The notes below the pieces were generated by a model, which had not been told where the DNA came from, searched no databases, and worked only from the letters and a program-made list of their open reading frames with translations. From assembly GCA_965263275.1 (NCBI GenBank), contig OZ253668.1, positions 1,756,857 to 1,820,856 on the forward strand: a stretch of 64,000 nucleotides of DNA, in the 5' to 3' direction. Of the stretch, positions 10,991 to 60,710 are shown piece after piece (the first letter of the stretch is position 1; each line of letters begins with the position of its first letter). The DNA is from Thermodesulfobacteriota bacterium. GTDB taxonomy: Bacteria > Desulfobacterota_D > UBA1144 > Nemesobacterales > Nemesobacteraceae. Position numbers and translations under genes: made by a program.

Positions 10991-12645
10991 CGTGTCTGAC
11001 CCGAACTCCTTTTGCGATTCACGTGGGAGACGATCATGAAAAAGACGGCCGTAAGCGCGTATCCAGCCGCCCATTTCGCTCCCGTCGCGAAGCCGAGGGA
11101 ATACAGGACTCCTTCGACCGAAATCTCCCCCGCGTGTATGAAGCCGAAAAACGCCATCACAGCCCCCACGCCCATCCATGCCGCCGCCTGGCCAAGACGG
11201 CGTTCCACAAGACACACGGCAGTTGCGGCCCAGACTACGGAGGAAAGCATGAATCCCTGAGAAAGCGCCACAAGCCCGGGAAGCTGAAGCCCGTACGAAA
11301 CGAACACATCCAGATTCTCAAACGCGCGGTGAGCAATTGAGCCGTCCGACATTGCCGCTCCCACCGCTCCGACAGTCTGGGAAACCACCACGGTTCCCCA
11401 CGCCGCAAGCGCGGGTATCAACCCCAGGGCCACGGCGGGGGCGTGGGAGCGGGGAGTGGTCTGAAATGCCTGGGATGTCATCACGAGACCTATCCATATA
11501 AGTATTACTCCGGCGGCCTCAACTGGCACCATGGCTACGACGAGAGAACTCAGGCCGACAAGCGACACTACGGCGTAGAAAGCTCCGTTTATCACCGAGT
11601 AGCCTCCTCTCGCCCCCATTCCCTTCCACCCCGGGTGGCCTATGTATATGGTCGTAGGGAAACACGACCCGAAAAGAGACGCAGCTATTGATCCTGCTCC
11701 GTTAACCGCGAGACACGGTCCCGTGGGATAGGGATCTCCCGCGGCCTCGGCGGACTCTATGTTCTGAAGAGACCCGAGGATGTTGTAAAGTCCCATTGGA
11801 AGTACGACGGGAATCAGTACCGAACGCATCAGGGGATCCGAAAGCCCCGCAACGAGATCGCCCACAACGGGAACGGGCAGGTAGAAGCCCACGTCGCCGA
11901 GCGCTTTGCCCACCGCGGGCCCCGACACTGATGTTTCCCCTCCGAATCCCGCTGCGAAGAGAAGCCACGCGGCAAACATTCCGAGGGCAAGCGCAAGACC
12001 CACCCCGGGAATTCCAAGCGGAAGCTTTGTCCTTGAGAGCAGGGTGAACAGCAACACTCCCAGAGGGAGCAGGGCGACCAGAGGATAGGCGAAGCATCTC
12101 GCGGCAAAGTCCATGCACAGAAACGCTACGGCTATTCCCGCAAGCGAAGTGAGAAGTGCGGCGCGCGGAGTCGCTTTTCTTATCTTTTCGGCCACAAAAG
12201 ACCCCAAGAGTTCAATGATTCCCGAGAGGAAGCACGCTGCCACCCCGACGCGCCACGCTACGAGGGCGGCTTCCTGCGGCGTGGCTCCCTGGCTCTGGGC
12301 TAGGAGCTTCGCGGGAATCATTACCAGGAAGATAAAGGCGAAAACGGAAATCGTGTTGATTCCGTAGGGAAGCGCCGTCACATCTTTTCTTCCCGTAGCT
12401 GCCGACAGGCGTTGCGCGAGCCAGGCGTAGTAGAGATTGCCGATAATAAGCGATATGGCTACGGCCGGGAGAACGGACGAAATGACAAACTCCCTTTGCA
12501 GACCCACAAGACTGGTAAGCAGTATCACGATCAAGATGTACTGGACAAGGTTGTCCACCATAAGACCGAAAAAGCCCTCAGCGTCGGAGAACGAAAAAAG
12601 AGGCTGGGCGCCCGTGGGGGAAAAGAGGTTTCTCAGGTTTTTCAT
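10987..12645 (-). CDS. Polytopic membrane permease, NCS2/AzgA-like (xanthine/uracil/purine permease superfamily)
   Basis: 552 aa with at least 12 predicted TM segments. N-terminal region LFSFSDAEGFFGLMVDNLVQYILIV…ALPYGINTISVFAFIF resembles AzgA/PbuG-type purine permeases. Confidence 0.45.
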   Translation of the reverse strand: MKNLRNLFSPTGAQPLFSFSDAEGFFGLMVDNLVQYILIVILLTSLVGLQREFVISSVLPAVAISLIIGNLYYAWLAQRLSAATGRKDVTALPYGINTISVFAFIFLVMIPAKLLAQSQGATPQEAALVAWRVGVAACFLSGIIELLGSFVAEKIRKATPRAALLTSLAGIAVAFLCMDFAARCFAYPLVALLPLGVLLFTLLSRTKLPLGIPGVGLALALGMFAAWLLFAAGFGGETSVSGPAVGKALGDVGFYLPVPVVGDLVAGLSDPLMRSVLIPVVLPMGLYNILGSLQNIESAEAAGDPYPTGPCLAVNGAGSIAASLFGSCFPTTIYIGHPGWKGMGARGGYSVINGAFYAVVSLVGLSSLVVAMVPVEAAGVILIWIGLVMTSQAFQTTPRSHAPAVALGLIPALAAWGTVVVSQTVGAVGAAMSDGSIAHRAFENLDVFVSYGLQLPGLVALSQGFMLSSVVWAATAVCLVERRLGQAAAWMGVGAVMAFFGFIHAGEISVEGVLYSLGFATGAKWAAGYALTAVFFMIVSHVNRKRSSGQTR

Positions 12646-12836
12646 GTCTTATCCCGGGGTTTCGCAGAACTGTAAAAGCCAACGGCGAAGCTGCAATTAA
12701 CCTATCGATTATAATGAAAAAGCTGCCGCAGACAAAACCCCGCGCATTGCCTGTCTCGCTTGGACAGGGTGATTTCGGGTGATTCCCGGACATTGTTTTG
12801 ACAGTCCACTCTTTTGAATGTTTAATCTTTAGGATT

Positions 12837-23874: not shown

Positions 23875-24832
23875 CTATTTCAGGTGCTTTTGCAGAAGGT
23901 CAAGTGCATCCGAGATCTCACTCATATCCGGCAAATCGCCATGGACCAGATTAGAGAACACGCCTGTATACACCACGTTCAAAGAGTTGCTCCAAGTTTC
24001 AAAATTAGAAAATAGAGGTGTATTTACTAGTGGTTCTTCAAAGCAATCGGAATGTTCAAATCCCCCTGCTTTTTCATCTTCAATACACCTGTCACACAAC
24101 GACTTAAACTCATTGCTTGCGATAAAATTCTGATATTCGTCAAGCCGTAAGACCAGGCAGATATCATAAAGATGGCGAATACGGTTCGATAGTCTGGCAA
24201 TGGGATCATCGCTGTAACTATCCTTGATAATTCCAAGCATTTTCTCAACCAGCGTACGTTTTTGGGACAGTACCTTAATCGAAAAATTTTCTAGCCCGAA
24301 CCGAGCGATTAAATCAACCCTCTTTTTTCTAATCAGGTGCTCCGCAATAAGAGTTCTTATTTTTCGTATTTCAAATGGTTCGGGGTTGGCAAATGCATTG
24401 ATTTCAATTAGCAGTTCCCGGGGGACCTGCTCAAAACCATCGTTATCAATTCTGCAAGGATATTTGTAGACCGTCCTACGGAATTTTGAACCCTTGGATT
24501 CTCGTTCGTCACCCTTAAGAGAAATGAGGTTCTGGGTAACGATGTTTTCCACATTCTTTAGCAACTTTTTTCTTTGACTGTCTCCTTTTTTACTGCTGCA
24601 AGACACAGCCAAGTCAATATCTTCGGAAAAGCGACCTATTAATCTATTATGCTTTGGACAGAGATGTTCCTCCTTTAAAGACCACACTTTCTCTGTACGG
24701 AGATTCAGATAGAAATTTAAGGGACATTGTTATCCAATAACCTTTTTCGATATAGGCATCCGGTATCCCAGCGGATTCCCCTGTGGTCTTTATCAGTTCA
24801 TTGAAGATTTCTTCGTCTTTGTGCAGATTCAT
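23875..24832 (-). pseudogene. abiEii: AbiEii/AbiGii-family nucleotidyltransferase toxin, disrupted by a 1-nt frameshift
   Basis: N-fragment (24647-24832) ends …VVFKGGTSLSKA*. C-fragment (23875-24687) continues in the -1 frame as …NRLIGRFSEDIDLAV… Together these give the AbiEii hallmark GGT.L.......R.SEDIDL. Inserting one base near 24647-24650 restores SKAYNRLIGRFSEDIDL. Confidence 0.75.
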
Positions 24833-25557
24833 TACCTAATGTTCCACTCTCTGGACTCCAGCCACCGAGACTGATCCAGTTTCAGCTTATAAGTTGTTAA
24901 GGGATTTAGGGAGAGTGCCAGGCTGTCTGGCACTGATAGTTGCAAACTTGAAAAAAGCAGACAAATCAGAGCCCTGACTCTAGGAGGGTAGTAATCTTTT
25001 GCTAAAGACGCGAGCCGCAACCGCTCGAGACTGGATAATTCTGATATGCGGCGACGTATGATCTCCAGAGAGATATCTATGTCCGAGTCCTGTATCTTCC
25101 TTATGTCTTTCAGAGCGTCCAGATATTGCAGAAGCGGCACATCCTTTTCCTTTACAGGGATACGGCTCACCACGGTATCAATTCGGATTGTGCCGAATTC
25201 CTTTTTCTGGTGACTGCCTTTGCAGGCAACGGTGACTACGCGGGACATCTGGGTAGTAAGCCCTAACCAGTTATAGAGATACGGGCCGGTGACATAGCCG
25301 CACAGACGGCCGTCCTTATATAACATTGAACGAATAATCTCTCCGTCTGAAGGTCTCATGGGGCCCAGAAGTCCCTTTTTAGATACATAGAAATGTCCCT
25401 TGGAAAAACGTTCAATTTCTCCGTCTGAAACCATTCTGTTTACTGCCTTGATAACTGCGCCCGGAGATTTTAAATAATCCGGCAGTTCTCGATAGCTGAA
25501 TATCCGCCCGGCGGGCATTTCTTCAATGCTTTTCCGTACCGCCCTCGCAATGCTCAT
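24832..25557 (-). CDS. abiEi: AbiEi-like antitoxin / transcriptional regulator (type IV TA, abortive infection)
   Basis: 241 aa. Its stop overlaps the abiEii start (operon order antitoxin then toxin). N-terminal winged-helix-like region MSIARAVRKSIEEMPAGRIFSYRELPDYL typical of AbiEi/DUF6088 proteins. Confidence 0.6.
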   Translation of the reverse strand: MSIARAVRKSIEEMPAGRIFSYRELPDYLKSPGAVIKAVNRMVSDGEIERFSKGHFYVSKKGLLGPMRPSDGEIIRSMLYKDGRLCGYVTGPYLYNWLGLTTQMSRVVTVACKGSHQKKEFGTIRIDTVVSRIPVKEKDVPLLQYLDALKDIRKIQDSDIDISLEIIRRRISELSSLERLRLASLAKDYYPPRVRALICLLFSSLQLSVPDSLALSLNPLTTYKLKLDQSRWLESREWNIR

Positions 25558-32308: not shown

Positions 32309-33289
32309 ATGAGCCATAGTCATTTAAACGTCCCAACGAAGTACTGGGAGTTGACGAAAGAGGTACCGCCCCCTCCGATAGAGCGGGATATCAAGTCATG
32401 GATCATAGCGAATCCGTCGGATCCGCTTTGGGACATAGACGTGCTGCCGCTGACTTATACGGACAGCAGGTGGTCAGCGTTCATAGTAAGATGTGATGAG
32501 GCGACGAGGACACGTCTGTGCCCGACTCCCCCGTTACAGGTGTGGGACGGAGAGAATGCAGATCTGGTAGAGTTTTGGTATGTTGAGCATGTGAACACGA
32601 TGTTAGGTCCATATCTTGAGTTTGGCGTAACGATCTCGGCGACGTACAGTGACCCAGAGGGCAATGTATGGAAAGCGGGATACTATCCGTATATGTATTT
32701 GACGGGAGACGCGCCGGTGGACGCGGGTCGTGTGCTTGGATTTCCAAAGAAGATGTCGTACATCAGATGTACGGTACACGGTGGAGAGAAAGGCACTGAC
32801 TTTTTTGGGTATGCGATGAGTCGTAACGGTTATCTGATGCATAGCGCAACAGGGCAGTTTGACGACAAGCAGGTAACACCTCCGTATTTCTATGGTAAGA
32901 CAGACTGGGGCAAGTTCAACATGAAGGTAATAACGCGGCCGGACGTATCGAGTTCGGAGTGGCAGTTAACATATCTGCCATCAGCGTTGCCGCCTCCGTT
33001 TGACGCAATGATCCAGGGGCACAGGTTCAAGATCAAGCCTGAGCACACCAGGACAGCAAGTGGAGACGCCATAAACTGGTTTATGCAGGCGACACCGTTT
33101 GACAACATGGGAGCGGAGCTGAAGATCCAGGAGGTAACGGGAATGATATCGTTTGTATTCGATCTCGTAATACCGCCGGCGGTGGTACTCTGGACGGAGA
33201 CGTATGAGAGGCCAGCGAGTTACAGGGGTTATGCCACACCATACAAGTATGGATTGAGGCAGCAGTTCCCGATCAGTCAGGGTTCATAA
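32309..33289 (+). CDS. Acetoacetate decarboxylase (ADC) family protein, paralog 1
   Basis: …YYPYMYLTGDAPVDAGRVLGFPKKMSY… aligns with C. acetobutylicum ADC …YLHMMYLDNEPAIAVGRELSAYPKKLGY…, where K115 is the Schiff-base lysine. Upstream, VEFWYV…GPYLEFGV matches the ADC beta-cone. Confidence 0.75.
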   Translation: MSHSHLNVPTKYWELTKEVPPPPIERDIKSWIIANPSDPLWDIDVLPLTYTDSRWSAFIVRCDEATRTRLCPTPPLQVWDGENADLVEFWYVEHVNTMLGPYLEFGVTISATYSDPEGNVWKAGYYPYMYLTGDAPVDAGRVLGFPKKMSYIRCTVHGGEKGTDFFGYAMSRNGYLMHSATGQFDDKQVTPPYFYGKTDWGKFNMKVITRPDVSSSEWQLTYLPSALPPPFDAMIQGHRFKIKPEHTRTASGDAINWFMQATPFDNMGAELKIQEVTGMISFVFDLVIPPAVVLWTETYERPASYRGYATPYKYGLRQQFPISQGS

Positions 33290-33319: not shown

Positions 33320-34291
33320 ATGGGATTACAAGCAAATGAGTACAGTTATCCTTGGTTGGATGAAGGAGAAGTTCCACCATTACCATTGGACAGGGACAGG
33401 ATCCATATCATCAGTCAGGGCGTAGCGGACCCGGTGTTCGACTACGATATCATACCGCTGACGTATACAGACAGCAGGTGGATGGCCTATGTAATAAAGG
33501 CAGACATCAATGCTATGAAAGCGGTGGTACCGGAGCCGATCGAGGTTCAGGATGATGTAATAGAGTTTTGGTACGTAATACACAAGAACACGATGTTAGG
33601 TCCATACATGGAGATGGGCGTAACGTTCTCGGCAACAGTGGATGACGGGAGTGGTCATATATACAGGGCGGGATACTATCCGTACATGTATCTGTCAAAC
33701 GACTCTCCGATATTTGCGGGTAAAGAGCCCTTTGGATTTCCGAAGAAGGCTGCTTACATTGCCGGGTATGAGCATGGTACCAACAACAACTACTTCAATC
33801 ATCTGATGGAGCGCAGAGGTTATATACTGCACACAGCGAACGGGCGTTATTCTGACAGGCCGCTGTCGGCGAGGCCAACATTTTATGGCAAGACCGATTG
33901 GGGACGTATGAACTACAGGATAACAACGAGGCCGGATGTAACGACCAGTATCCACGAAGTAACGTATCTTCCTTCGGATCTTCCTCCGGGATTTGGGACT
34001 GGGCACAGGTTCCAGCTGAATCCTGAGAGTGTAAGGACCGCGGTAACAGAGGATGTACGTTCGTGGTTCCTGTCAGGCACACCGTTTGACTATATGGGCG
34101 GACAGATACCAGCAATGGAGGTAGTAGGGTTGATAAGCTTCACGTTCAACCTGATCATACCGCCGGCGGCGACGATCTGGACAAGGACGGTAGAGAGGAC
34201 GACTGAAGACTTTGGTCATGTGGTCTACTCCACGCCGTTTGTGTACACGATGCGTCACAGGTTCCTGCTGCCACAGTATAGCCAGGGCTAA
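33320..34291 (+). CDS. Acetoacetate decarboxylase (ADC) family protein, paralog 2
   Basis: AMKAVVPEPIEV vs ADC ALRKVVPEPLEI. YYPYMYLSNDSPIFAGKEPFGFPKKAAY vs ADC YLHMMYLDNEPAIAVGRELSAYPKKLGY. About 45% identical to paralog 1 across the full length. Confidence 0.8.
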   Translation: MGLQANEYSYPWLDEGEVPPLPLDRDRIHIISQGVADPVFDYDIIPLTYTDSRWMAYVIKADINAMKAVVPEPIEVQDDVIEFWYVIHKNTMLGPYMEMGVTFSATVDDGSGHIYRAGYYPYMYLSNDSPIFAGKEPFGFPKKAAYIAGYEHGTNNNYFNHLMERRGYILHTANGRYSDRPLSARPTFYGKTDWGRMNYRITTRPDVTTSIHEVTYLPSDLPPGFGTGHRFQLNPESVRTAVTEDVRSWFLSGTPFDYMGGQIPAMEVVGLISFTFNLIIPPAATIWTRTVERTTEDFGHVVYSTPFVYTMRHRFLLPQYSQG

Positions 34292-50706: not shown

Positions 50707-52062
50707 TTACTGGACCGAAATTCTGCTTTGTATGGCGTCTCTTACGGTCTTGTAATCGTTTGGAAGTTCCACCGGAGCGTTTCTCAGCTCAGACGATATC
50801 CCCTCAAGGACTGACTTATGGTAGCCGGCTTTGAACTCCACGAACTTCAGTCCGTGAGCGGTGGAAACGACCACTATTTTTTCCTTCGGGGAAAGAACCT
50901 TTTTCTTAAGAAGTTTCAAAAACACCGCGAGCGCGACTCCGGTATGGGGACAGTTAAAGGTGCCCGTTCTGTCCGCCATTGCCGAGGCGTGGGAGAGTTC
51001 GTCTTCCGATGCCTGTTCAACGACTCCGTCGAATCGCCTGAGAATCGAAATCGCTTTGTTGATGCTTACGGGGTTTCCGATCTGTATGGCGTTTGCGAGG
51101 GTTTTTTTCGCTCTTACCGGGACAAATTCGCTGAAGCCCTTAAGGAAGCTCAGGTAAAGAGGGTTTGCGTTCTGCGCCTGCGCGCAAACTATTCTCGGAA
51201 GTTTTTTTATGAGACCGAGGTCATACATCATCAAAAATCCCTTTCCGAGCGCGGACACGTTGCCGAGGTTGCCGCCCGGAATTATCACCCAGTCCGGAAC
51301 TTCCCAGTTAAACTGCTGGCAAAGTTCTATGCTTATCGTTTTCTGCCCCTCTATGCGCAGGGAGTTAATGGAATTTGCGAGATAGATATTATGCTCGCTC
51401 GTGATTCTCTGGACCATCTCCATGCAGCCGTCAAAATCGGTGTCCAGGGAAAGAACCAGGGACCCGTTCGAGATGGGCTGAATCAGCTGAGCAATGGATA
51501 CCTTGTCTTTGGGAAGAAAAACTATTGAGGGAATGCCTGCTGACGCGCAGTAGGCGGCCAAGGCAGCCGAGGTGTCCCCTGTTGAGGCGCAGGCGACCGC
51601 CGGGATGCTCATATTGTCGCTTATCATCTGGTTTACGGCCGAAACAAGCACGGTCATCCCCAGATCCTTAAAGGATCCCGTGTGGCTGTTGCCGCACATC
51701 TTTATCCAGAGATCCTCAACGCCGACGTGTTTTCCCAGCCTCTCGGCCCAGAAAAGATTCGTGCATCCCTCGTACATTGAAACTATGTTTTCGTTTTCAA
51801 TAGAGGGCAGTACCCACTCCTTTTTCCCCCAGACTCCGCTTCCAAAAGGCCAGGACTGCTTTCTGTATCTGCTGTCGAAAAGCTCTCTCCACTGCTCGGG
51901 CGTTTTTTGCCCGAGAGTTTCCATGTCGTGCTGAACGTCGAGAAGGTTGTTGCACTTCCTGCATCTGTAGATGATCTCATCAAGGGGATAGGTCTCAGAG
52001 CAATTCTCGTCGATGCATCTGAAATGGGCTCGGTATTCACTCATCAAGCTAACAAGGTACAT
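50707..52062 (-). CDS. thrC: Threonine synthase (long form with N-terminal Zn-ribbon)
   Basis: [26 protein letters not shown] (Zn ribbon). PLP lysine region FKDLGMT. 451 aa. Confidence 0.9.
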   Translation of the reverse strand: MYLVSLMSEYRAHFRCIDENCSETYPLDEIIYRCRKCNNLLDVQHDMETLGQKTPEQWRELFDSRYRKQSWPFGSGVWGKKEWVLPSIENENIVSMYEGCTNLFWAERLGKHVGVEDLWIKMCGNSHTGSFKDLGMTVLVSAVNQMISDNMSIPAVACASTGDTSAALAAYCASAGIPSIVFLPKDKVSIAQLIQPISNGSLVLSLDTDFDGCMEMVQRITSEHNIYLANSINSLRIEGQKTISIELCQQFNWEVPDWVIIPGGNLGNVSALGKGFLMMYDLGLIKKLPRIVCAQAQNANPLYLSFLKGFSEFVPVRAKKTLANAIQIGNPVSINKAISILRRFDGVVEQASEDELSHASAMADRTGTFNCPHTGVALAVFLKLLKKKVLSPKEKIVVVSTAHGLKFVEFKAGYHKSVLEGISSELRNAPVELPNDYKTVRDAIQSRISVQ

Positions 52063-52326
52063 TTTGCCTTTTTTTCTGTCAACGCCTTGTAGACCCTACG
52101 CCAAATTTTCCATCGCTTTGAGGTTTAAGGGTTTGTGTTTTTAATTAGCTGTAGCGCTGAGCAAGAAAGAACCTAAATTTTTGGCACTCCCGAGAAAAAA
52201 GGGTGGAGTGAAGCGAAAGCATTTGGTGGATATGTCCACGTGCTGTTGCCGATGGAAACAGATTTCGGGACGCTGTCGCGGCCGTATTCTCGGCACATCG
52301 TCAATCATAAGATTCCCTAAAAAACC

Positions 52327-52356
52327 TTGACTCTGAGCCGATTTTGAGTTTAGAAT
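52327..52356 (+). promoter_or_regulatory. Sigma70-like promoter for A1 (SRCR protein gene)
   Basis: TTGACT (52327-52332), 18-nt spacer, TAGAAT (52351-52356). AAGGAGG RBS before ATG 52446. Confidence 0.45.
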
Positions 52357-52445
52357 AGGAACAAACGGTTGGTTGTTACTTACTGATCATTGCAAGAGCG
52401 GGAAGATCAATCGGCGGGGGTTTGTAACTATTGAAGGAGGTCTTA

Positions 52446-53324
52446 ATGATGAAAGGAGTAAAATGTATTGGAAAGGCAGTTCTGATTATGGCCGTGTTTT
52501 TTCTTTTTGGTTCCGGGAATGTCTCGGCGGCAGAGGAGAATACCGTTCAGACTCTGTGGTCGGCAACTATGACGGTAGGCAAACACTATTCCACTAAGGA
52601 GGGTAGGGATCTCTACGGATATTACGGTGGTAACACCCCAGCCGCTGGCGCTCTCACCAGCGACACTTTCAGTTACAACGGTGATGAATACAAGGTTTAC
52701 GAGATCGATAAGATCGGTAATATCGTAGTGTTGGGTTTTCGGTCTGGTGGTGGTGCTGGTTATGAAATTTTAAAGACGGAATCGATTGAAAAGAACAAAA
52801 CTTTTTATCTGAATATCGGGAATTCCGTGGAACTTGATTTCAGGGACCGGGTCATCCCTACCGAGGAAGACGATGAAGACTATTTTTTGCACGAGAGTGA
52901 GATACGGCGCAACTGGTTAAACCAGAGATATAACTGGAGCGAAGGTCAGCAAGTCAGTGTAAGCATAACCACCAAAGCTCTTGACGGAGGTCTCAGGCTG
53001 CCTCCCGATGGCAATGGAACAAGCGGGGAATTAGGCATATTTGATGACCCCAATAACGATGGTACTGGGCAGTGGGAGAGAATATGCGATGACAATTGGG
53101 GTGATACGGACGCGGAGGTTGCGTGCAGCCAGTTAGGCCTCTCTGGGGGCACTGCGACAATCGGAATACGGAATGCATCCATGACCACCGCAGAAACCTT
53201 CTTGCTGGACGAGGTAATATGCGATGGCACGGAAGACAGGGTAATTGACTGTCCTCATGACGGCCGTGGCGTGCACGATTGCGCTGCGTGGGAAATTGCC
53301 GGGGTTACTTGTACTTCCCCTTAA
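52446..53324 (+). CDS. Secreted protein with C-terminal SRCR (scavenger receptor cysteine-rich) domain, copy A1
   Basis: Signal peptide MMKGVKCIGKAVLIMAVFFLFGSGNVSA. C-terminal …GQWERICDDNWGDTDAEVACSQLGLSGG…ETFLLDEVICDGTEDRVIDCPHDGRGVHDCAAWEIAGVTCT reproduces the SRCR consensus …GxWGTVCDDxW…A.VVCRQLG…CxGxE…L..C.H…H.C.H.EDAGV.C. Confidence 0.75.
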   Translation: MMKGVKCIGKAVLIMAVFFLFGSGNVSAAEENTVQTLWSATMTVGKHYSTKEGRDLYGYYGGNTPAAGALTSDTFSYNGDEYKVYEIDKIGNIVVLGFRSGGGAGYEILKTESIEKNKTFYLNIGNSVELDFRDRVIPTEEDDEDYFLHESEIRRNWLNQRYNWSEGQQVSVSITTKALDGGLRLPPDGNGTSGELGIFDDPNNDGTGQWERICDDNWGDTDAEVACSQLGLSGGTATIGIRNASMTTAETFLLDEVICDGTEDRVIDCPHDGRGVHDCAAWEIAGVTCTSP

Positions 53325-53352
53325 ACCATTTCAATAAAACTTGGGAGTTAAG

Positions 53353-54579
53353 ATGAATATGAACAGATTATTAAGACTGGCGGTATTTCTATGTGTTCTT
53401 GCGGTTGTATTCTCTGATGGACGCATTGCTGTGGCCAGTGACGTTCCCGGGCGTATAACGGCCGGGGAAGTTACGGATGATGAGAGCCTGATGAAAAACT
53501 TCGTTGAATACGCGGCGGGACGTCTTCAGGACTCTGCCAGCTTTGCGGATGCGTTAAATCTGCTATACGATTTCAGGAAGGTCGGGGGAGACTGGAATGA
53601 AGATTCCACGTACCTGATTCTTCTCTCAAGAAATGGGGGAGTGTACCTTCACGGGAGGAACAGGGAGCTTGAAGATCAGGACTGGTCTGATCTTCAGGAC
53701 GCAACGGGGGAAGATGTCGGGCAGAAGTTCCTGCAGGGCGGTTCTGTTGAGTATTACGGAGAAGGAGATCAGAGTTCCAGAGTGAGTTACGCATTTCCGT
53801 TTTCTGCTCCCCATATTCCTTTTGCGAACCCGGATGAACCTAAGTTCGTGCTGGTCGGGGGTTTTGATTACGAGCCTGAGCCCGAAGATTTTGGAGGAGC
53901 GGAAGTTTCTTGCGGGGAGTTTTTTGCTTCTTATGGTTTGCAGCAGGGGCTGTGTCCAACTGTGGGTGCCAGAGATGTGAGCACCCTTGATGACCTGAAG
54001 GTGTTTGTGGATGAGGCAAGGCATTTTTTTACAGCGGCCTTGGTAGCCCCGCAAATTGATCCCGTGCTATTGCGCAGGATATTCAGGCTTGATGGGCCGT
54101 GGAAACATGTCTCCACTTACATTTATATTATGGATGATACGGGCAGGGTGATATTTAACGGTGCGAATAGAGACATTGAGCAGATGGATTTATGGAACAA
54201 CGAGGACAACAACGGGGATAAATTCATTCAGGAACTTATTGCCACTGCGGGGACGGGTGAGACTGTGGAATATAATTGGGAGAATCCGGCTGTGGAAGGA
54301 GACGGTGAAGGCGCTGGTCCTGGAGGCGATTCACCCAAGCTGGGCTACACGATAAGGATCCCTGTTCCGGTTGAGGAAGAGGGCGAGACGAAGAGAAATT
54401 CAAGCCGTGTCTACATTTTTGGTTCGGGAATTTATTTTGGAGAACAGGATGGGCAGTCCAGTGGTGAAGGTTGTGTGATCGCCGGTGCTGAGGATACCAT
54501 TCAAAACGGTTTGTTGAGTTTGTTCTTAATCCTATCTGCGTTGCTTTTGGCAGTTTCATTAAAAAGACGTTCAGTTTGA
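53353..54579 (+). CDS. Secreted protein with two tandem sCache_2-like domains and a C-terminal hydrophobic anchor plus basic tail, copy A2
   Basis: Signal peptide MNMNRLLRLAVFLCVLAVVFS. Two internal repeats (…STYLILLSRNGGVYLHGRNRELE…GGSVEYY… and …STYIYIMDDTGRVIFNGANRDIE…GETVEYNWENP…) fit the single-Cache pattern. Ends …DTIQNGLLSLFLILSALLLAVSLKRRSV. Confidence 0.55.
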   Translation: MNMNRLLRLAVFLCVLAVVFSDGRIAVASDVPGRITAGEVTDDESLMKNFVEYAAGRLQDSASFADALNLLYDFRKVGGDWNEDSTYLILLSRNGGVYLHGRNRELEDQDWSDLQDATGEDVGQKFLQGGSVEYYGEGDQSSRVSYAFPFSAPHIPFANPDEPKFVLVGGFDYEPEPEDFGGAEVSCGEFFASYGLQQGLCPTVGARDVSTLDDLKVFVDEARHFFTAALVAPQIDPVLLRRIFRLDGPWKHVSTYIYIMDDTGRVIFNGANRDIEQMDLWNNEDNNGDKFIQELIATAGTGETVEYNWENPAVEGDGEGAGPGGDSPKLGYTIRIPVPVEEEGETKRNSSRVYIFGSGIYFGEQDGQSSGEGCVIAGAEDTIQNGLLSLFLILSALLLAVSLKRRSV

Positions 54580-54812
54580 AAATAGCTGGTAGTGCTTGAA
54601 TTTGCGAAAGATTTAAAACGGTGCGTCAAGCTAGCTGACATAATATCAGGGTAGCCTGTGAGAGTAACTGCCCTGATATTATGTTGTGCGTCTCTTCATC
54701 CGCGGTCTAGACGGAGTGGCAGTGCTTGCTGTCCAAGCGAGCAGCAAGAAAACTTCGTATCCGTAGCACTGAGTCACTTCTCTCTTTCTTTGGGGCTGTC
54801 TGGACCCCCCCC
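54580..54812 (+). ncRNA. Conserved structured non-coding element (copy 1) downstream of A2, candidate sRNA or structured 3' UTR
   Basis: Collinear with 60137-60362. Contains a long hairpin (cataatatcaggg…ccctgatattatg) and a second hairpin (cttgctg-tccaagcgag-cagcaag). The small ORFs the track calls here change frame between the two copies while the nucleotides stay conserved, which argues for RNA rather than protein. Confidence 0.4.
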
Positions 54813-55151
54813 GATACCCTTTATCAAGCTTGATTTAGCGGAAATTTTAAAACCAAGTTAAGTTGAAATTCACGGGCCACTCGATCGAGAGCTACCTGCC
54901 CCCCCTGCGCCTCTGAGCGCCTACTGGGGACTTGTGCCTCGGTCGAGTGCCGTGATGAATGATGTCCAGTAGGACTTTCTACCATTAATCAAATCAAAAA
55001 ACAATAAAAATTAAAGAATCGGGTGTGGCTGCAATCCCGCTTGATCTACAGACTTACATGGGATATTCGCGGCATTTGCCTTTAACCTCTCCTTCGTCTC
55101 GTTGGCAAGTCCAGGCAGTTATCAGTCGATCTATGTTTCTATAAGTCCTCC

Positions 55152-56381
55152 TTATGACGTTGCAAAGTTCTTCTCAAACAGCACTCCCTTTTCAAGCAGT
55201 GTGCACGCCACGTAAAGAAGACGGTCTCCCACCGAGCGCAAGGCCCTGTAATGACCGTGTCCCCTCCCGCGAAGCGCGTTGTATTTAGCCCTGCTTGCAG
55301 GGTCGCCCTGAATTGCCGTTCGAGCCCAGTGATAAATTGCGTTGACAAGTCTTTTATGCGAGGCTCTTCTTTGCGTAACGCGCTTGCTCTTTCCCGACTG
55401 CCTGGTTACCGGAGCCACGCCGCTTAGGCTGCGAAGCGATTTGTAATCGCGACGCCGAAACAGTTCACAGGCTTCACCGAGCATTGCGGCGAGCACAATC
55501 TTTCCCACCCCGGGAATTGACAGTAGAATCTCGACATCGTCGAATTCCGCTTCCCCTCGGCCGCTGCCGCCGACAGATATGATCCGAGAGTCAATCAGCT
55601 TCTCGGCATCCTTAAGCTGCCTCAGTACTGCTATCATGCGCTCCACAATGCTTTGAACGCGCATAACGCAGCCGCTTGCGGTTGCCGGGAAGATGTTCAT
55701 CTCCTTTGATCTCAGGATCTCCAAAACTCCTTTGGCGTCAATGCGGCGGATACCATGGCGCTTTAACAGTTTTTCAATCGTCCGAGGTCTTGCGCGCCTT
55801 GCGGCCTGCGGGGTGGGCACGCGTTGCCATAACTCGAGGAGCCATGGATGAAAGCGCTCGCCAATCAGTTCATTGAACTGGGGATAATACTTCCACAATT
55901 GCGCGCGCATGCGAGCCGCCAGGCGAGTGCGCTCCCCTACAAGCTCTTCTCTCATGCGGGAGAGTTCCCGAAGTTCTATGATGATCGGTTCCGGCGCCGT
56001 GAGTCTGCGGAAGTGACGTATATCCGTGCCAAGCGCCGAAGCAAGCACATGCGCGTCGCGGCGGTCGTCCTTCGCTCCCGAGGGAGAGAACCGGTCCCTG
56101 AACCGATCCAGCTGCTTGGGATTGATGGAATGGACACAGAAGCCGCGAGCCATAAGGCTTTCCACAACGGGACCGTGAGGCACCTCGATAGCCGCGGCGA
56201 CTTGCTGCGGTCCGGACTCGCAGACATCCACTATCCATTGAACCATCTCGCCGAGGCCTTTTCCCCCGTGGGGGAAAGAACGCTCTCCCAGGATGGAACC
56301 GCTCTGGTCAATAACGCAGACTTGGTGGGATTGGGAACCCCAGTCAATGCCCGCGAGGAATTTATAATTAACGGATTGCAT
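55152..56381 (-). CDS. IS110-family transposase/recombinase (DEDD RuvC-like N-terminus + C-terminal Tnp domain), element 1
   Basis: …FLAGIDWGSQSHQVCVIDQSG… (DEDD_Tnp_IS110 N-terminal domain) and …LLSIPGVGKIVLAAMLGE…APVTRQSGKSK… (Transposase_20 domain). Confidence 0.85.
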   Translation of the reverse strand: MQSVNYKFLAGIDWGSQSHQVCVIDQSGSILGERSFPHGGKGLGEMVQWIVDVCESGPQQVAAAIEVPHGPVVESLMARGFCVHSINPKQLDRFRDRFSPSGAKDDRRDAHVLASALGTDIRHFRRLTAPEPIIIELRELSRMREELVGERTRLAARMRAQLWKYYPQFNELIGERFHPWLLELWQRVPTPQAARRARPRTIEKLLKRHGIRRIDAKGVLEILRSKEMNIFPATASGCVMRVQSIVERMIAVLRQLKDAEKLIDSRIISVGGSGRGEAEFDDVEILLSIPGVGKIVLAAMLGEACELFRRRDYKSLRSLSGVAPVTRQSGKSKRVTQRRASHKRLVNAIYHWARTAIQGDPASRAKYNALRGRGHGHYRALRSVGDRLLYVACTLLEKGVLFEKNFATS

Positions 56382-56684: not shown

Positions 56685-57968
56685 ATGACTAGGAGGTATT
56701 ACTATATCATGAACAATGATAAATCATTATTTTTTGCAGGCGTCGACTGGGGATCCCAATCCCACTACGTCTGCCTCATTGACCAAAACGGTTCCATTCT
56801 CAAGGAAAACTCCTTCAGGCACAGCGGCGAAGGCCTTTGGAATATGGGTGACTGGTTAATTGAAGAGACAGGCTCAATCCCGGAGAATGTCGCCGTAGGA
56901 ATTGAAGTCACTCGCGGTCCCGTCGTGGAAAGCCTCATGGCTCGCGGCTTTGATCTTCACTCCATCAACCCAAAACAACTGGACCGATTCCGCGACAGAT
57001 TCTCCGCCGCCGGAGCGAAGGACGACCGCAGAGATGCCATGGTGCTCGCCTCGGCTCTTCGTACCGACAGACGTCACTTCCGCTCTCTGGAACCCCAGTA
57101 CGAGGATATCACGATCCTGCGCAGCCTCTCGCGCAGAAGAGAGGAACTTGTGTTTGAACGCAATCGCTGGACTAATCGACTGAGCGACCAGTGGTGGACT
57201 TACTATCCCCAGTTCAAAGAAGTGGTGGGCGACGACACTGTCCGCCCCTGGATTATTGAATTATGGAGACTTGCTCAAACACCTGATGCCGCAAGGCGAA
57301 TCAGAGTGTCCTCTGTGCAGAAGATACTCAAGCGCCACAGAATACGACGTATCGACGCGCAGCAAGTGCTTGGGATTATTCGCTCAAAAGAAATAAACCT
57401 CATGCAGGCAACAGTTTCAAGCTGCGTTTGGCGTGTGAAGAGCATTATTGAGTTCCTCGATATCGTCAACAGACAGCTCAAGGAAATCGAGACCCGTATC
57501 AAGGAGATGCTCCATTCAATCATCTCTCGGGAGAAAACTGAAAACGCGGGGACAGGAAAACCAAGCGATGTCGAAATCCTCCTGTCCATGCCGGGAATCG
57601 GCTTTGTCACTGCCGCCACGCTGGTCTCCGAGGCTTATGATCTGATACGACGACGCGACTACAAGGCGCTTCGGTGCGTTGTCGGCACAGCTCCGGTGAC
57701 AAAACAGTCGGGCAAGAGCAAGTATGTCATGCGGCGCCGAACATCGTCTCGCAGACTTCAGACAGCGATCTACCACTGGGCAGGGGTAGCGGTTCTGCAC
57801 GATCCCGTAAGCAAAGCCCGCTACGCCTCGCTACGGGCACGGGGACTGCGCCATTCCAGGTCTCTTCGCACCGTCGGCGACCGTCTTCTCTATGTTGCCT
57901 GCACCCTGCTCAAAAAAGGAGAAATGTTCCGCAAAGACTTCAAGGAACTGCAAAAGGAAGCCGCCTGA
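56685..57968 (+). CDS. IS110-family transposase/recombinase, element 2 (about 55% identical to element 1)
   Basis: …FFAGVDWGSQSHYVCLIDQNG… and …LLSMPGIGFVTAATLVSE…APVTKQSGKSK… Same domain order as element 1 but clearly diverged. Confidence 0.85.
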   Translation: MTRRYYYIMNNDKSLFFAGVDWGSQSHYVCLIDQNGSILKENSFRHSGEGLWNMGDWLIEETGSIPENVAVGIEVTRGPVVESLMARGFDLHSINPKQLDRFRDRFSAAGAKDDRRDAMVLASALRTDRRHFRSLEPQYEDITILRSLSRRREELVFERNRWTNRLSDQWWTYYPQFKEVVGDDTVRPWIIELWRLAQTPDAARRIRVSSVQKILKRHRIRRIDAQQVLGIIRSKEINLMQATVSSCVWRVKSIIEFLDIVNRQLKEIETRIKEMLHSIISREKTENAGTGKPSDVEILLSMPGIGFVTAATLVSEAYDLIRRRDYKALRCVVGTAPVTKQSGKSKYVMRRRTSSRRLQTAIYHWAGVAVLHDPVSKARYASLRARGLRHSRSLRTVGDRLLYVACTLLKKGEMFRKDFKELQKEAA

Positions 57969-58076: not shown

Positions 58077-58609
<533 letters not shown>

Positions 58610-59011: not shown

Positions 59012-59107
59012 AGAACTAACTAGTCGTTTGCTATTTATCGGTTGTTACGAGGTTTCGGCGGAAAGGGTCAGGCGGCGGGGATTTGTAACTGTTCAGGAGG
59101 TGCTGAT

Positions 59108-59941
59108 GTGAAAGCGGTAAGATGTATTGGAAAGGCAGTTCTGATTATGGTCGTGTTTTTTCTTTCTGGTTCCGGGAATGTCTTAGCGCAAGCTAATTCT
59201 GTACAAACTCTGTGGACGACAACCTTTACTGTAGGAAGTTTTACTGACAATAACGGTATATTTGGCGATGAAGGTACGTTTTACTCTGGATATGACGGTG
59301 CCACGCGTATAGGCAGTATCAGCGATTACAATTTCTCTTATGAAGGTGTTACTTATAAAGTTAAGGCCATTGTGAGAGTCGGCGATAGGGTGAGACTTGA
59401 ATTTTATAATCCAGCTTTTAGAACGGCAGGGAGCCACAAGAACAGAACTTTTTATCTGAATATCGGGGATTCCACATCGCTTGATTTCAGAGATGAGGAT
59501 TCGGATACAGCAACCACATGGCGAGGGGTGCGACGCGACTGGACAGGCCAGACATATGACTGGACTGACGGTCAGGAAATCAGTGTCAGCATAACCACCA
59601 AATATCTTGACGGAAGTCTCAGCTTACCTTCTGATGGAACGAGTGGAAAATTAGGCATATTTGATGACCCCGATAACGACGGTACTGGGCAGTGGGAGAG
59701 AATATGCGATGACGAATGGGATAATACGAACGCGGAGGTTGCGTGCAGCCAGTTAGGCTTCTCTGGGGGCACTGCGACAAGCGAACAGGGTGCATCCCTT
59801 AGCATCGCAGAAACCTTCTTGCTGGACGATGTAGACTGCGATGGTACGGAAGACAGGGTGATTGACTGTGAGCATGCCGGTCGTAACATGCACGATTGCG
59901 CTGCACAGGAAACTGCCGGGGTTATTTGTACTTCCCCTTAA
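59108..59941 (+). CDS. Secreted protein with C-terminal SRCR domain, copy B1 (diverged paralog of A1)
   Basis: GTG start with RBS. Signal peptide VKAVRCIGKAVLIMVVFFLSGSGNVLA. SRCR region …GQWERICDDEWDNTNAEVACSQLGFSGG…ETFLLDDVDCDGTEDRVIDCEHAGRNMHDCAAQETAGVICT. The N-terminal domain is only about 45% identical to A1, whereas the SRCR half is about 85-90% identical at the nucleotide level. Confidence 0.75.
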   Translation: MKAVRCIGKAVLIMVVFFLSGSGNVLAQANSVQTLWTTTFTVGSFTDNNGIFGDEGTFYSGYDGATRIGSISDYNFSYEGVTYKVKAIVRVGDRVRLEFYNPAFRTAGSHKNRTFYLNIGDSTSLDFRDEDSDTATTWRGVRRDWTGQTYDWTDGQEISVSITTKYLDGSLSLPSDGTSGKLGIFDDPDNDGTGQWERICDDEWDNTNAEVACSQLGFSGGTATSEQGASLSIAETFLLDDVDCDGTEDRVIDCEHAGRNMHDCAAQETAGVICTSP

Positions 59942-59969: not shown

Positions 59970-60136
59970 ATGAATATGAACAGATCATTAAGACTGGTGG
60001 TATTTCTATGTGTTCTTGCGGTTGTATTTTCTGATGGACGCGTTGCTGTGGATACCATTCAAAACGGTTTGTTGAGTTTCTTTTTAACCCTGTCAGTATT
60101 GCTTTTGTCCATATCATTAAAAAGACGTTCAGTTTG
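59970..60136 (+). pseudogene. Internally deleted remnant of the sCache gene (signal peptide fused directly to C-terminal anchor, 55 codons)
   Basis: MNMNRSLRLVVFLCVLAVVFSDGRVAVDTIQNGLLSFFLTLSVLLLSISLKRRSV. The junction gctgtgg|ataccattc corresponds to A2 gctgtgg(53437)… and …gctgagg|ataccattc (about 54492), i.e. a microhomology-mediated deletion. Confidence 0.7.
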
Positions 60137-60362
60137 AAAATAGCTGGTAGTGCTTGAATTTATGCGCAGTGCGCCGAGCTAACTAACATAATATCAGGGT
60201 AGCCTGTGAGAGTAGCTACCCTGATATTATGTTGTACGTCTCTTCATCCGCGGTCTAGACGGAGTGGCAGTGCTTGCTGTCCAGGAGAGCAGCAAGAAAG
60301 CTTCGTTATCCGTAGCACTGAGTCACTTCTCTCTTTCTTTGGGGCTGTCCGGAAGCCCCCCC
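60137..60362 (+). ncRNA. Conserved structured non-coding element (copy 2)
   Basis: Perfect 18-bp hairpin acataatatcagggtagc / gctaccctgatattatgt (60186-60232) and a second hairpin cttgctg…cagcaag. Compensatory differences relative to copy 1 improve the pairing. Confidence 0.4.
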
Positions 60363-60416
60363 AATCCCCACATTCATTGACACCAAGATAGGCTTTCGGT
60401 AATCTGGGAGAGTCGG

Positions 60417-60710
60417 ATGGAACAAAGAGCGCTTATCCTCGTGAAGGGAAGGGTACAGGGAGTTTATTTCAGAGTCTCAGCGGCGCAGACGGCGGCTAAG
60501 CTTTGCATCAGGGGACACGTGGAAAACCTTGCGGACGGTAACGTGAGAATAGTCGCCGAAGGAACGACCGAGAACCTCAAGAAACTGATCGAGTGGTGCG
60601 GAGAGGGCCCGCCCCGCGCGAAAGTGGAATCGGTTGAATTCAATTTGCTGCCCCCGGAGGGAGGATTCATCGGTTTTCGCATAAACAAGACTCAGAGGAG
60701 ATCAGATTGA
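60417..60710 (+). CDS. acyP: Acylphosphatase
   Basis: [19 protein letters not shown]…RGHVENLADGNVRIVAEG…L…GPP.A.V. 97 aa, with the acylphosphatase signatures VxGxVQGVxFR and GxVxNxxDGxV. Confidence 0.9.
   Translation: MEQRALILVKGRVQGVYFRVSAAQTAAKLCIRGHVENLADGNVRIVAEGTTENLKKLIEWCGEGPPRAKVESVEFNLLPPEGGFIGFRINKTQRRSD

Follow-up and report, generated by a model that had tools for sequence, protein, structure and literature searches.

The window examined here, a 64,000-nucleotide stretch of contig OZ253668.1 from an uncultured, Dadabacteria-like Thermodesulfobacteriota bacterium, contains a gene designated A2, whose predicted product joins two sCache_2 domains to a C-terminal sorting-type tail built around a cysteine. 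The A2 open reading frame (ORF) occupies positions 53341/53353 to 54579 of the forward strand and yields a product of 408 aa. The ATG at 53353 lies 5 nt downstream of a GGGAG box and is also the start of a 98%-identical homologue (P0001). Read from the sequence, the N terminus, MNMNRLLRLAVFLCVLAVVFSDGRIAVA followed by SD, opens with a basic n-region, continues as a hydrophobic core and has A-V-A just ahead of the S, which points to a Sec signal peptide of the signal peptidase I (SPase I) type covering residues 1-28 (53353-53436). No lipobox, the pattern [LVI][ASTVI][GAS]C that closes a lipoprotein signal peptide, is found in A2, and all 59 tail-bearing homologues likewise carry a non-lipobox signal, typically ending in AxA before H. 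The signal-peptide-like N terminus, along with the lipoboxes observed in paralogues, suggests an extracytoplasmic location. A2 is predicted to be a secreted double sCache_2-type protein lacking an output domain. An initial annotation, made from the letters of the window, had described a Sec signal peptide, two Cache-like repeats, an acidic Gly-rich linker and a transmembrane (TM) segment ending in KRRSV, and this description of the sequence is correct.

The Cache assignment is supported by profiles, by an internal repeat and by a structural model. A2 matches the Pfam models sCache_2 (PF17200; E = 2.2e-17, 63.9 bits, cut-off 25) and dCache_2 (PF08269; E = 6.5e-17, 62 bits, cut-off 26.5), in each case over two stretches, and its halves align with one another at 31% identity across 72 aa (E = 1e-8). 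The initial annotation had made its reading depend on such support from hidden Markov models, which both families provide. In an AlphaFold2 (AF2) model built from 65 homologues (pLDDT 86), alpha/beta modules occupy approximately residues 37-170 and 212-361, residues 365-386 are disordered and a helix spans 382-407. Module 1 (53461-53862, forward strand) is delimited by the secondary structure of the model, the internal repeat and the second Pfam stretch. Module 2 (53986-54435, forward strand), the better conserved of the two, holds the best Pfam stretch (residues 254-313) and is further supported by Foldseek and by alignment of the A2 family profile to 2QHK/4EXO, so that the relationship is also seen at the level of sequence. 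The top Foldseek matches of the model are the sCache_2 sensor domains of chemoreceptors, namely 4EXO/2QHK, 4K08, 5G4Y and TlpB; 4EXO is matched at E = 2.5e-6 with a TM-score of 0.72 normalised to 4EXO. The model shows a PAS-like alpha/beta fold with a long N-terminal helix, as in solved sCache_2 domains. These closest solved domains presumably bind small carboxylates or urea-like compounds; a ligand is given in the structure-search output for 5G4Y and TlpB only. That a stand-alone, anchored Cache protein is atypical, as first proposed, holds insofar as A2 has no output domain, which is unusual, yet about 1 in 7 sCache_2 proteins have no listed output domain either (PMC4822843 Table 1, by subtracting the output-domain columns from the total). 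Stand-alone sCache_2 proteins are therefore a minority and not unheard of.

The C terminus of A2 reads GEQDGQSSGEGC374VIAGAE, then DTIQNG (residues 381-386), then LLSLFLILSALLLAVSL and finally KRRSV, with the TM helix at residues 387-403. The putative C-terminal sorting domain covers residues 368-408 (54454-54576, forward strand) and is composed of the acidic, Gly-rich linker, the GEGC374VIAG segment, the DTIQNG spacer, the helix and the basic end. It was delimited with an alignment of 56 distinct tails of Cache-family homologues, a consensus of 207 distinct tails and a tail profile. In the alignment of 56, the only invariant column is the Cys that corresponds to Cys374 of A2 (codon 54472-54474), which lies seven residues upstream of DTIQNG. 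Over the 207 tails this Cys is kept at 99%, and the consensus reads DDDGG-C-A-I-A-G, 7-9 variable residues, a TM segment of the form [LF]-N-L-[FL]-L...S..LF, and RRR. The spacer that follows the Cys has the consensus A-I-A-G-x-x-N-T-x-Q-S-x and sets the Cys 12 residues ahead of the start of the helix. A2 and the 207 tails therefore share a tripartite layout of signature, TM helix and basic cluster at the extreme C terminus. By this comparison, the conserved tail signature is GGC(A/V)IAG with its near-invariant Cys. The initial annotation had proposed DTIQNG for this part. That hexapeptide is common to both copies of the gene in the window, where a six-frame search finds it nowhere else, but across the family it is conserved only loosely, roughly as [ND]-T-x-[QE], and was rejected as the signature. 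The four residues beginning with the invariant Cys (C-A-I-A in the consensus, C-V-I-A in A2) also fit a CaaX box, and the candidate protease described below belongs to the CaaX-protease (Rce1/CPBP) family.

The tail is not confined to Cache proteins. A 45-position tail profile, run with HMMER against 1.84e9 representative proteins, gave 180 matches at E <= 1e-3, and among the 150 matches listed, 145 were new, 100 with a Cache body and 45 without. The latter include proteins with leucine-rich repeats (LRR) and FN3 domains (800-1016 aa), Calx-beta proteins, some of them with PKD domains, an SRCR+LRR protein, and FN3 and SWM-repeat proteins. Cluster look-ups place such Cache-less tail proteins on the same chromosomes of metagenome-assembled genomes (MAGs) as the Cache homologues. 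On one contig of 1,919,453 bp, for example, are found P0059, a second Cache paralogue, P0187, P0229 and a 988-aa LRR protein, so that the tail proteins of this 1.92-Mb chromosome number five or more and fall into three unrelated architectures (Cache, LRR/FN3 and Calx-beta). Within the 64-kb window, the tail occurs on A2 only. When the tail alignment was used against an index of 5.8e9 proteins, no match at E <= 10 came back. Since plain HMMER succeeds with this profile, the negative reflects a limit of the word index. The recurrence of one tail on unrelated proteins of the same genomes argues for a dedicated sorting domain over an incidental TM helix, and the A2 tail can be regarded, from comparison of sequences, as a true sorting-signal-like module. 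The resemblance to sorting signals pointed out in the initial annotation, which was to fall if no other protein shared the tail, is accordingly upheld.

Two further observations concern the distribution of the tail. P0217 (695 aa) combines an SRCR domain, LRRs and the tail, so that SRCR domains can also be displayed directly via the tail and without a Cache partner. Four proteins of 866-894 aa (P0085, P0087, P0089 and P0090) each contain two complete double-Cache bodies and may be true fusions or read-through gene calls. The tail profile matches two stretches in each of them, so that the first tail would be internal, and the GGC signature is found at both tails in P0090 only. Internal tags of the MYXO-CTERM type have been reported (PMC11980579).

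Within the Cache family, the tail alternates with a different membrane anchor. Of the 84 homologues found, every one with a name comes from a 'Candidatus Dadabacteria' MAG and bears no annotation beyond 'cache domain-containing protein'. The C-terminal tail is present on 59 of the 84, and none of these 59 has a lipobox. The tail-less members do: 18 carry a lipobox by the PROSITE rule (e.g. LGLACGDG), 5 more do so with a mis-called start or a Thr at -1, and truncation or a mis-called start accounts for the other two. In a neighbour-joining tree of the family, the tail is ancestral and lipobox forms arise at no fewer than 3-4 separate positions, each with loss of the tail. One syntenic slot, ispE-SRCR-Cache-uvrD, holds a tail form (P0049) in one genome and a lipobox form (P0021) in another, and P0017 combines the tail with a lipobox-type leader in which the Cys is replaced by Tyr. 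This exclusivity and the repeated swaps suggest that the tail and an N-terminal lipid anchor are interchangeable solutions for the Cache protein. The lipobox paralogues have Gly at +2; in E. coli, Gly at this position of a lipoprotein suggests sorting to the outer membrane.

A conserved Cys within a tripartite tail recalls a recently defined class of signals. MYXO-, JDVT-, Synerg- and CGP-CTERM share this layout and an invariant Cys, and Cys-containing CTERM signals are predicted substrates of CPBP/Rce1-like proteases termed Mrt (10.1101/2023.06.07.544157). Processing by MrtX, probably after lipidation of the Cys, has been shown experimentally, making it the sole enzyme for which cleavage is established; lipidation of the Cys of myxosortase substrates is still hypothesised only (PMC11980579). 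The initial annotation stated that the tail has none of the known motifs. LPXTG, PEP and GlyGly are indeed absent, and what was missed is this Cys-type class. Among Cache-family tails, the best (P0008) scores 18.4 bits against the MYXO-CTERM model TIGR03901 (cut-off 20) and shows traces of JDVT-CTERM, while the tail in locus L034, from a neighbouring lineage, reaches 20.6 bits against the same cut-off of 20. Matches of the tails to Pfam TM_ErbB1 were discarded as noise from TM composition.

A candidate processing enzyme is encoded in related genomes. The 1.92-Mb chromosome carries a gene for a Rce1-like CPBP protein of 201 aa (L009 7973-8578). Two LRR tail genes in tandem lie 1.4 kb away from it, and a Calx-beta tail gene is 8 kb distant. 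Genes of the AbiEii/AbiEi toxin-antitoxin type adjoin the CPBP gene (L008 1911-4120 / L009 5611-7820), with no evident link to the tail system. Myxosortase (Mrt) models account for the first six, and for seven of the top eight, NCBIfam matches of this Dadabacteria CPBP, with scores of 76 bits for MrtP, 72.7 for Mrt_core, 60 for MrtS, 56.5 for MrtC, 41.9 for MrtX, 40.9 for MrtJ and 36.9 for MrtZ. The catalytic motifs EExxxR, FxxxH and HxxxN are invariant, and the best match of an AF2 model (pLDDT 89) is the CPBP-family protein SpdC (6U0O). The family forms about 80 clusters at 54-100% identity, beyond which identity drops abruptly to at most 39%. When species-representative genomes were scanned, the protein came from MAGs whose titles name Dadabacteria or Thermodesulfobacteriota, and Nitrospirota yielded more distant homologues. 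It also shares contigs with tail proteins, among them contigs as short as 10.9 and 12.9 kb. Six loci have tail-bearing ORFs no farther than 10 kb from the CPBP gene (L010, L015, L016, L021, L027 and L034). Three of these are Cache-family genes, 0.65-5.5 kb away (L015, L016 and L027). In Dadabacteria such proximity is no more than suggestive.

A related neighbourhood is found in Nitrospirota. In 12 of 20 Nitrospirota-type loci, a CPBP homologue (34-47% identical) lies 46-444 bp from one or two genes for subtilases (S8) with FN3 domains. These loci (L069-L088) come from Nitrospirota/Thermodesulfovibrionia MAGs; L088 8085-12592 and L071 5598-10149 are examples. The subtilase tails end in GGCS[VI]...(N.pTA.AD)...TM...RRRK, with a Pro in the TM helix, and every GGC-type tail found in the Nitrospirota-type loci directly adjoins the CPBP gene. 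MrtS is the best-scoring model for the Nitrospirota homologues and ranks third for the Dadabacteria CPBP, behind MrtP and Mrt_core. The arrangement looks like a dedicated enzyme-substrate pair that is missed by NCBIfam cut-offs, and its conservation ties this CPBP clade to GGC-type tails.

A conserved companion of A2 is a secreted protein with an SRCR domain. Copy 1 of its gene (52431-53324, forward strand) specifies a signal peptide, a variable N-terminal domain and a C-terminal SRCR domain (Pfam SRCR, E = 2.8e-17), with neither tail nor lipobox. Copy 2 (59042-59941, forward strand; E = 2.2e-19) is intact, has a diverged N-terminal domain and is related to copy 1 through repeats D2, D3 and D7-D9 at 76-91%. 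The two score 63.3 and 70 bits against PF00530 (cut-off 26.1). Copy 1 ends 16-28 nt upstream of A2; the two genes are probably cotranscribed, as had been suggested at the outset, and a promoter and terminator scan of 52000-55200, in which counts equalled the shuffled expectation, was uninformative on this point. An SRCR gene adjoins the Cache gene in all seven related loci as well as in the window and is the sole conserved neighbour in these eight contexts. In the contexts read, the SRCR partner has a variable N-terminal part, a constant C-terminal SRCR domain and no anchor of its own. These N-terminal parts (the window pair; L002, L005 and L007) vary in both sequence and length, for totals of about 280-580 aa, and match no Pfam domain; clusters that hold more than one SRCR gene and more than one Cache gene are frequent. 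Elsewhere in the window, two adjacent paralogues at 32309-33289 and 33320-34291 (326 and 323 aa) share similar N-terminal motifs (...PPPPIERD... and ...PPLPLDRD...), and another two neighbouring ORFs lie at 23875-25557.

The two SRCR copies belong to a tandem duplication that begins in the 5' part of thrC and ends about 70 nt into an acylphosphatase gene (repeats D1-D10). An intact thrC gene, encoding threonine synthase (50707-52062, reverse strand; ORF, with PALP in the syntenic locus L001), contributes its 5' part as the left end of the duplicated unit, where repeat D1 (51710-52009) is 97% identical to 58170-58469. The junction lies at 58077-58555, where an acylphosphatase 5' fragment (58077-58184, 94% identical to 60378-60485, repeat D6) abuts a truncated thrC 5' remnant (58163-58555, reverse strand). 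Between the copies are two transposase ORFs that read as IS110-family-like (55152-56381, reverse strand; 56685-57968, forward strand). A sister strain (L001, 98% identical) shares the duplication but lacks these two ORFs. Its Cache gene runs straight to the thrC remnant, and an rve-type insertion sequence (L001 7916-8887) separates its thrC from SRCR copy 1. This region is a hot spot of insertion sequences and duplication.

The second copy of the Cache gene has largely been deleted. A relic at 59970-60137 (forward strand) encodes 55 aa in which the signal peptide is fused in frame to DTIQNG, the TM helix and KRRSV. Alignment of the DNA reveals a single in-frame deletion of 1059 nt (codons 28-380, window 53434-54492) bounded by GCTGTGG and GCTGAGG, the very junction named in the initial annotation. 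That annotation held that the deletion precisely retains the signal peptide and the tail; DTIQNG, the helix and the basic end are kept, but the Cys signature, including Cys374, is lost. The tail profile scores 22 bits on copy 2 versus 54 bits on copy 1, and in the sister strain an AA to TT change creates a stop ahead of KRRSV. In L006, a 76-codon stop-to-stop segment between two near-identical SRCR genes (12600-12828) ends in a full tail (EDDGGCSLATADSAGADIPANSILIFLLLFFAVSVKS) with no start codon identified, and appears to be another remnant of a deleted Cache copy. Because the Cys is missing, the sister strain has acquired a stop and L006 holds a comparable remnant, the mini-ORF proposed earlier is better viewed as a decaying, apparently non-functional relic of the tandem duplication. 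A role as a functional small membrane protein was rejected on the loss of the signature, the score and the stop. The Cache module thus seems to duplicate and decay repeatedly.

The best explanation of these observations as a whole, to which we assign a probability of about 0.6, is that A2 is a membrane-tethered ligand-binding protein with a divergent Cys-type tail of the MYXO-CTERM class that is processed by the CPBP protease. A2 would be exported by Sec, and its N-terminal signal would be cut by SPase I. It would first be held in the inner membrane by the C-terminal helix, with KRRSV in the cytoplasm. The tail would be a lineage-specific member of the Cys-containing tripartite signals, with a spacer of about 8 residues between GGCAIAG and the helix. 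By analogy with MYXO-CTERM/MrtX, Cys374 would be modified, probably by lipidation, after which the 201-aa Dadabacteria CPBP, a Rce1-like, Mrt-related intramembrane glutamic protease, may remove the helix just after the Cys. The CaaX-like C-A-I-A that begins with this Cys fits a Rce1-type enzyme. The two Cache modules would then be left tethered by the C terminus to a membrane surface, the presumed final location of A2, which may interact with its SRCR partner. The anchor provided by the tail would probably be lipid in nature.

Several findings weigh against this reading. The A2 tail matches no NCBIfam 20.0 model at E <= 10; isolated tails run against NCBIfam and Pfam likewise gave no above-threshold model for it, and the cut-offs of the curated models TIGR03901, NF033191 and TIGR04564 are not reached. 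In described Cys-CTERM signals, the signature abuts the TM helix without a spacer (10.1101/2023.06.07.544157), whereas about 12 residues, several of them polar, separate Cys and helix in A2. The Dadabacteria CPBP scores under every curated Mrt cut-off, its proximity to tail genes is modest (a distance of up to 10 kb in about 6 of 30 loci), and its profile has no match in the 64-kb window or in loci L001-L007. Moreover, both Nitrospirota subtilases whose N termini were read (L069 and L088) bear an N-terminal lipobox-like signal as well as the tail, so that the two anchors are not universally exclusive. The unmatched models and the polar spacer would also suit a permanent stop-transfer anchor, which would make A2 a type I bitopic protein that keeps its helix and uses the Cys for a disulphide, a metal or a palmitoylation-like role. 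Such an anchor would look just like a TM helix with a basic end, and the replacement of the tail by a lipobox demonstrates a need for some membrane anchor only. A plain anchor, however, would not be expected to keep GGCAIAG and the [LF]NL[FL]L helix start across unrelated passengers, and it leaves aside both the conserved Mrt-like CPBP that co-occurs with the tail, sometimes next to tail genes, and the Nitrospirota homologues that adjoin GGC-tail genes. This alternative is considered unlikely. Far less credible is handling by a rhombosortase, an exosortase/archaeosortase or a sortase, as the initial annotation had it. These systems share the general tripartite layout, and a spacer between motif and helix is typical of LPXTG signals (10.1101/2023.06.07.544157), but A2 has no GlyGly, PEP, PGF or LPXTG-like motif, the corresponding NCBIfam tail models are unmatched, and the conserved residue is a Cys, the mark of the CPBP-processed class. 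GlyGly-CTERM/rhombosortase, PEP-CTERM/exosortase and LPXTG/sortase were rejected on motifs and tail models, the enzymes themselves not having been searched in the genome. Inspection of ORF translations, without an HMM test, revealed no evident rhomboid- or exosortase-like ORF in the window, and no rhomboid or exosortase gene lies next to a tail gene in the 21-kb loci read in detail.

A separate reading, compatible with either mode of anchoring, treats A2 as one half of a split signalling system: a detached sensor that, in the manner of solute-binding proteins, binds a ligand and then docks on a kinase or chemoreceptor encoded elsewhere. The tail would in that case serve only to hold A2 at the membrane. 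The sCache_2 domains overwhelmingly feed chemoreceptors and kinases (PMC4822843 Table 1), and binding proteins that stimulate receptors are documented (PMC8050422). Against this, the eight contexts show no conserved kinase, chemoreceptor or cyclase gene around the A2-type gene, the SRCR protein is the only conserved neighbour, and the other tail-bearing proteins are adhesin-like and not signalling proteins. A split sensor is accordingly improbable, and these same points favour a surface binding module. A2 and its SRCR partner are probably such a binding or recognition module, with the Cache protein tethered and the SRCR protein soluble, and not a classical transmembrane receptor. This is the weakest part of the account.

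If A2 is a CPBP-processed, Cys-anchored protein, the system is probably a lineage-specific variant of known Cys-type sorting that falls outside current curated models. A more specific version, which we put forward tentatively as slightly short of an even chance, is an undescribed Dadabacteria system composed of a 'GGCAIAG-CTERM' tail and the minimal 201-aa Mrt-like CPBP, with C-A-I-A as a Rce1-style cleavage site and a sister system acting on subtilases in Nitrospirota. Were this correct, it would be the main display route for LRR, FN3, Calx-beta and SRCR adhesin-like proteins and for the SRCR-partnered double-Cache protein, and the tail/lipobox swaps would be the first evidence from sequence comparison that a Cys-CTERM signal results in a lipid anchor. 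The recently defined Cys-type/myxosortase class would be widened by a divergent, well-populated system that curated models miss and that belongs to an uncultured phylum, and biochemistry would gain an enzyme of very small size together with a clean CaaX-like signature containing a single Cys. The same protein anchored by either lipobox or tail amounts to a natural swap experiment that bears on the question of lipidation at the invariant Cys. In Dadabacteria MAGs, 'hypothetical' proteins of the LRR, FN3, Calx-beta, SRCR and Cache kinds could be re-labelled by the dozen as probably surface-anchored, and in the Cache-SRCR pair a sensor fold would be put to an unusual use, apparently binding over signalling.

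Compared with known systems, each A2 module has the fold and sequence motifs of the sCache_2/dCache_2 sensors of chemoreceptors and kinases, and A2 is a tandem sCache_2 duplication, as dCache_2 has been described. Its two-module arrangement does not superpose on solved dCache domains (Foldseek TM-score ~0.27). Unlike those sensors, A2 has neither a flanking TM pair nor a cytoplasmic output domain, is tethered at the C terminus only (its lipobox paralogues by an N-terminal lipid) and has an SRCR protein as partner. Bacterial N-terminal lipoproteins of the Lgt/Lsp pathway are the functional equivalent inside the Cache family, whose members bear an LxxC lipobox or a tail and never both; A2 differs from them in its SPase I-type signal and in placing the candidate lipid-acceptor Cys at the opposite end.

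Resemblance to JDVT-CTERM and MrtS-type systems lies in lineage-restricted Cys-type tails paired with small CPBP proteases and, in the Nitrospirota relatives, in the adjacency of enzyme and substrate. The Dadabacteria tail lacks the DP motif of JDVT and has no Pro in its helix (the Nitrospirota tails have one), and scores are far under the cut-offs. A further parallel is MYXO-CTERM (TIGR03901) with MrtX, MrtC and MrtP of Myxococcota and Bradymonadales. The Dadabacteria tail differs in having a single Cys in GGCAIAG instead of GCGC, a spacer of about 12 residues (A-I-A-G plus a polar NT.Q) instead of direct abutment and a conserved [LF]NL[FL]L helix start, and its minimal enzyme, at 201 aa, falls under all curated Mrt cut-offs. 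Both systems nevertheless end in the same three parts, a Gly-rich signature that contains an invariant Cys, then a TM helix and last a basic cluster. In both, a disordered linker precedes the tail, and a single genome has many unrelated surface proteins that carry it. For the Dadabacteria tail, a candidate CPBP/Rce1-like protease with an Mrt-type core is encoded in genomes related to that of the window, and the tails of some A2 relatives reach or approach the TIGR03901 cut-off itself.

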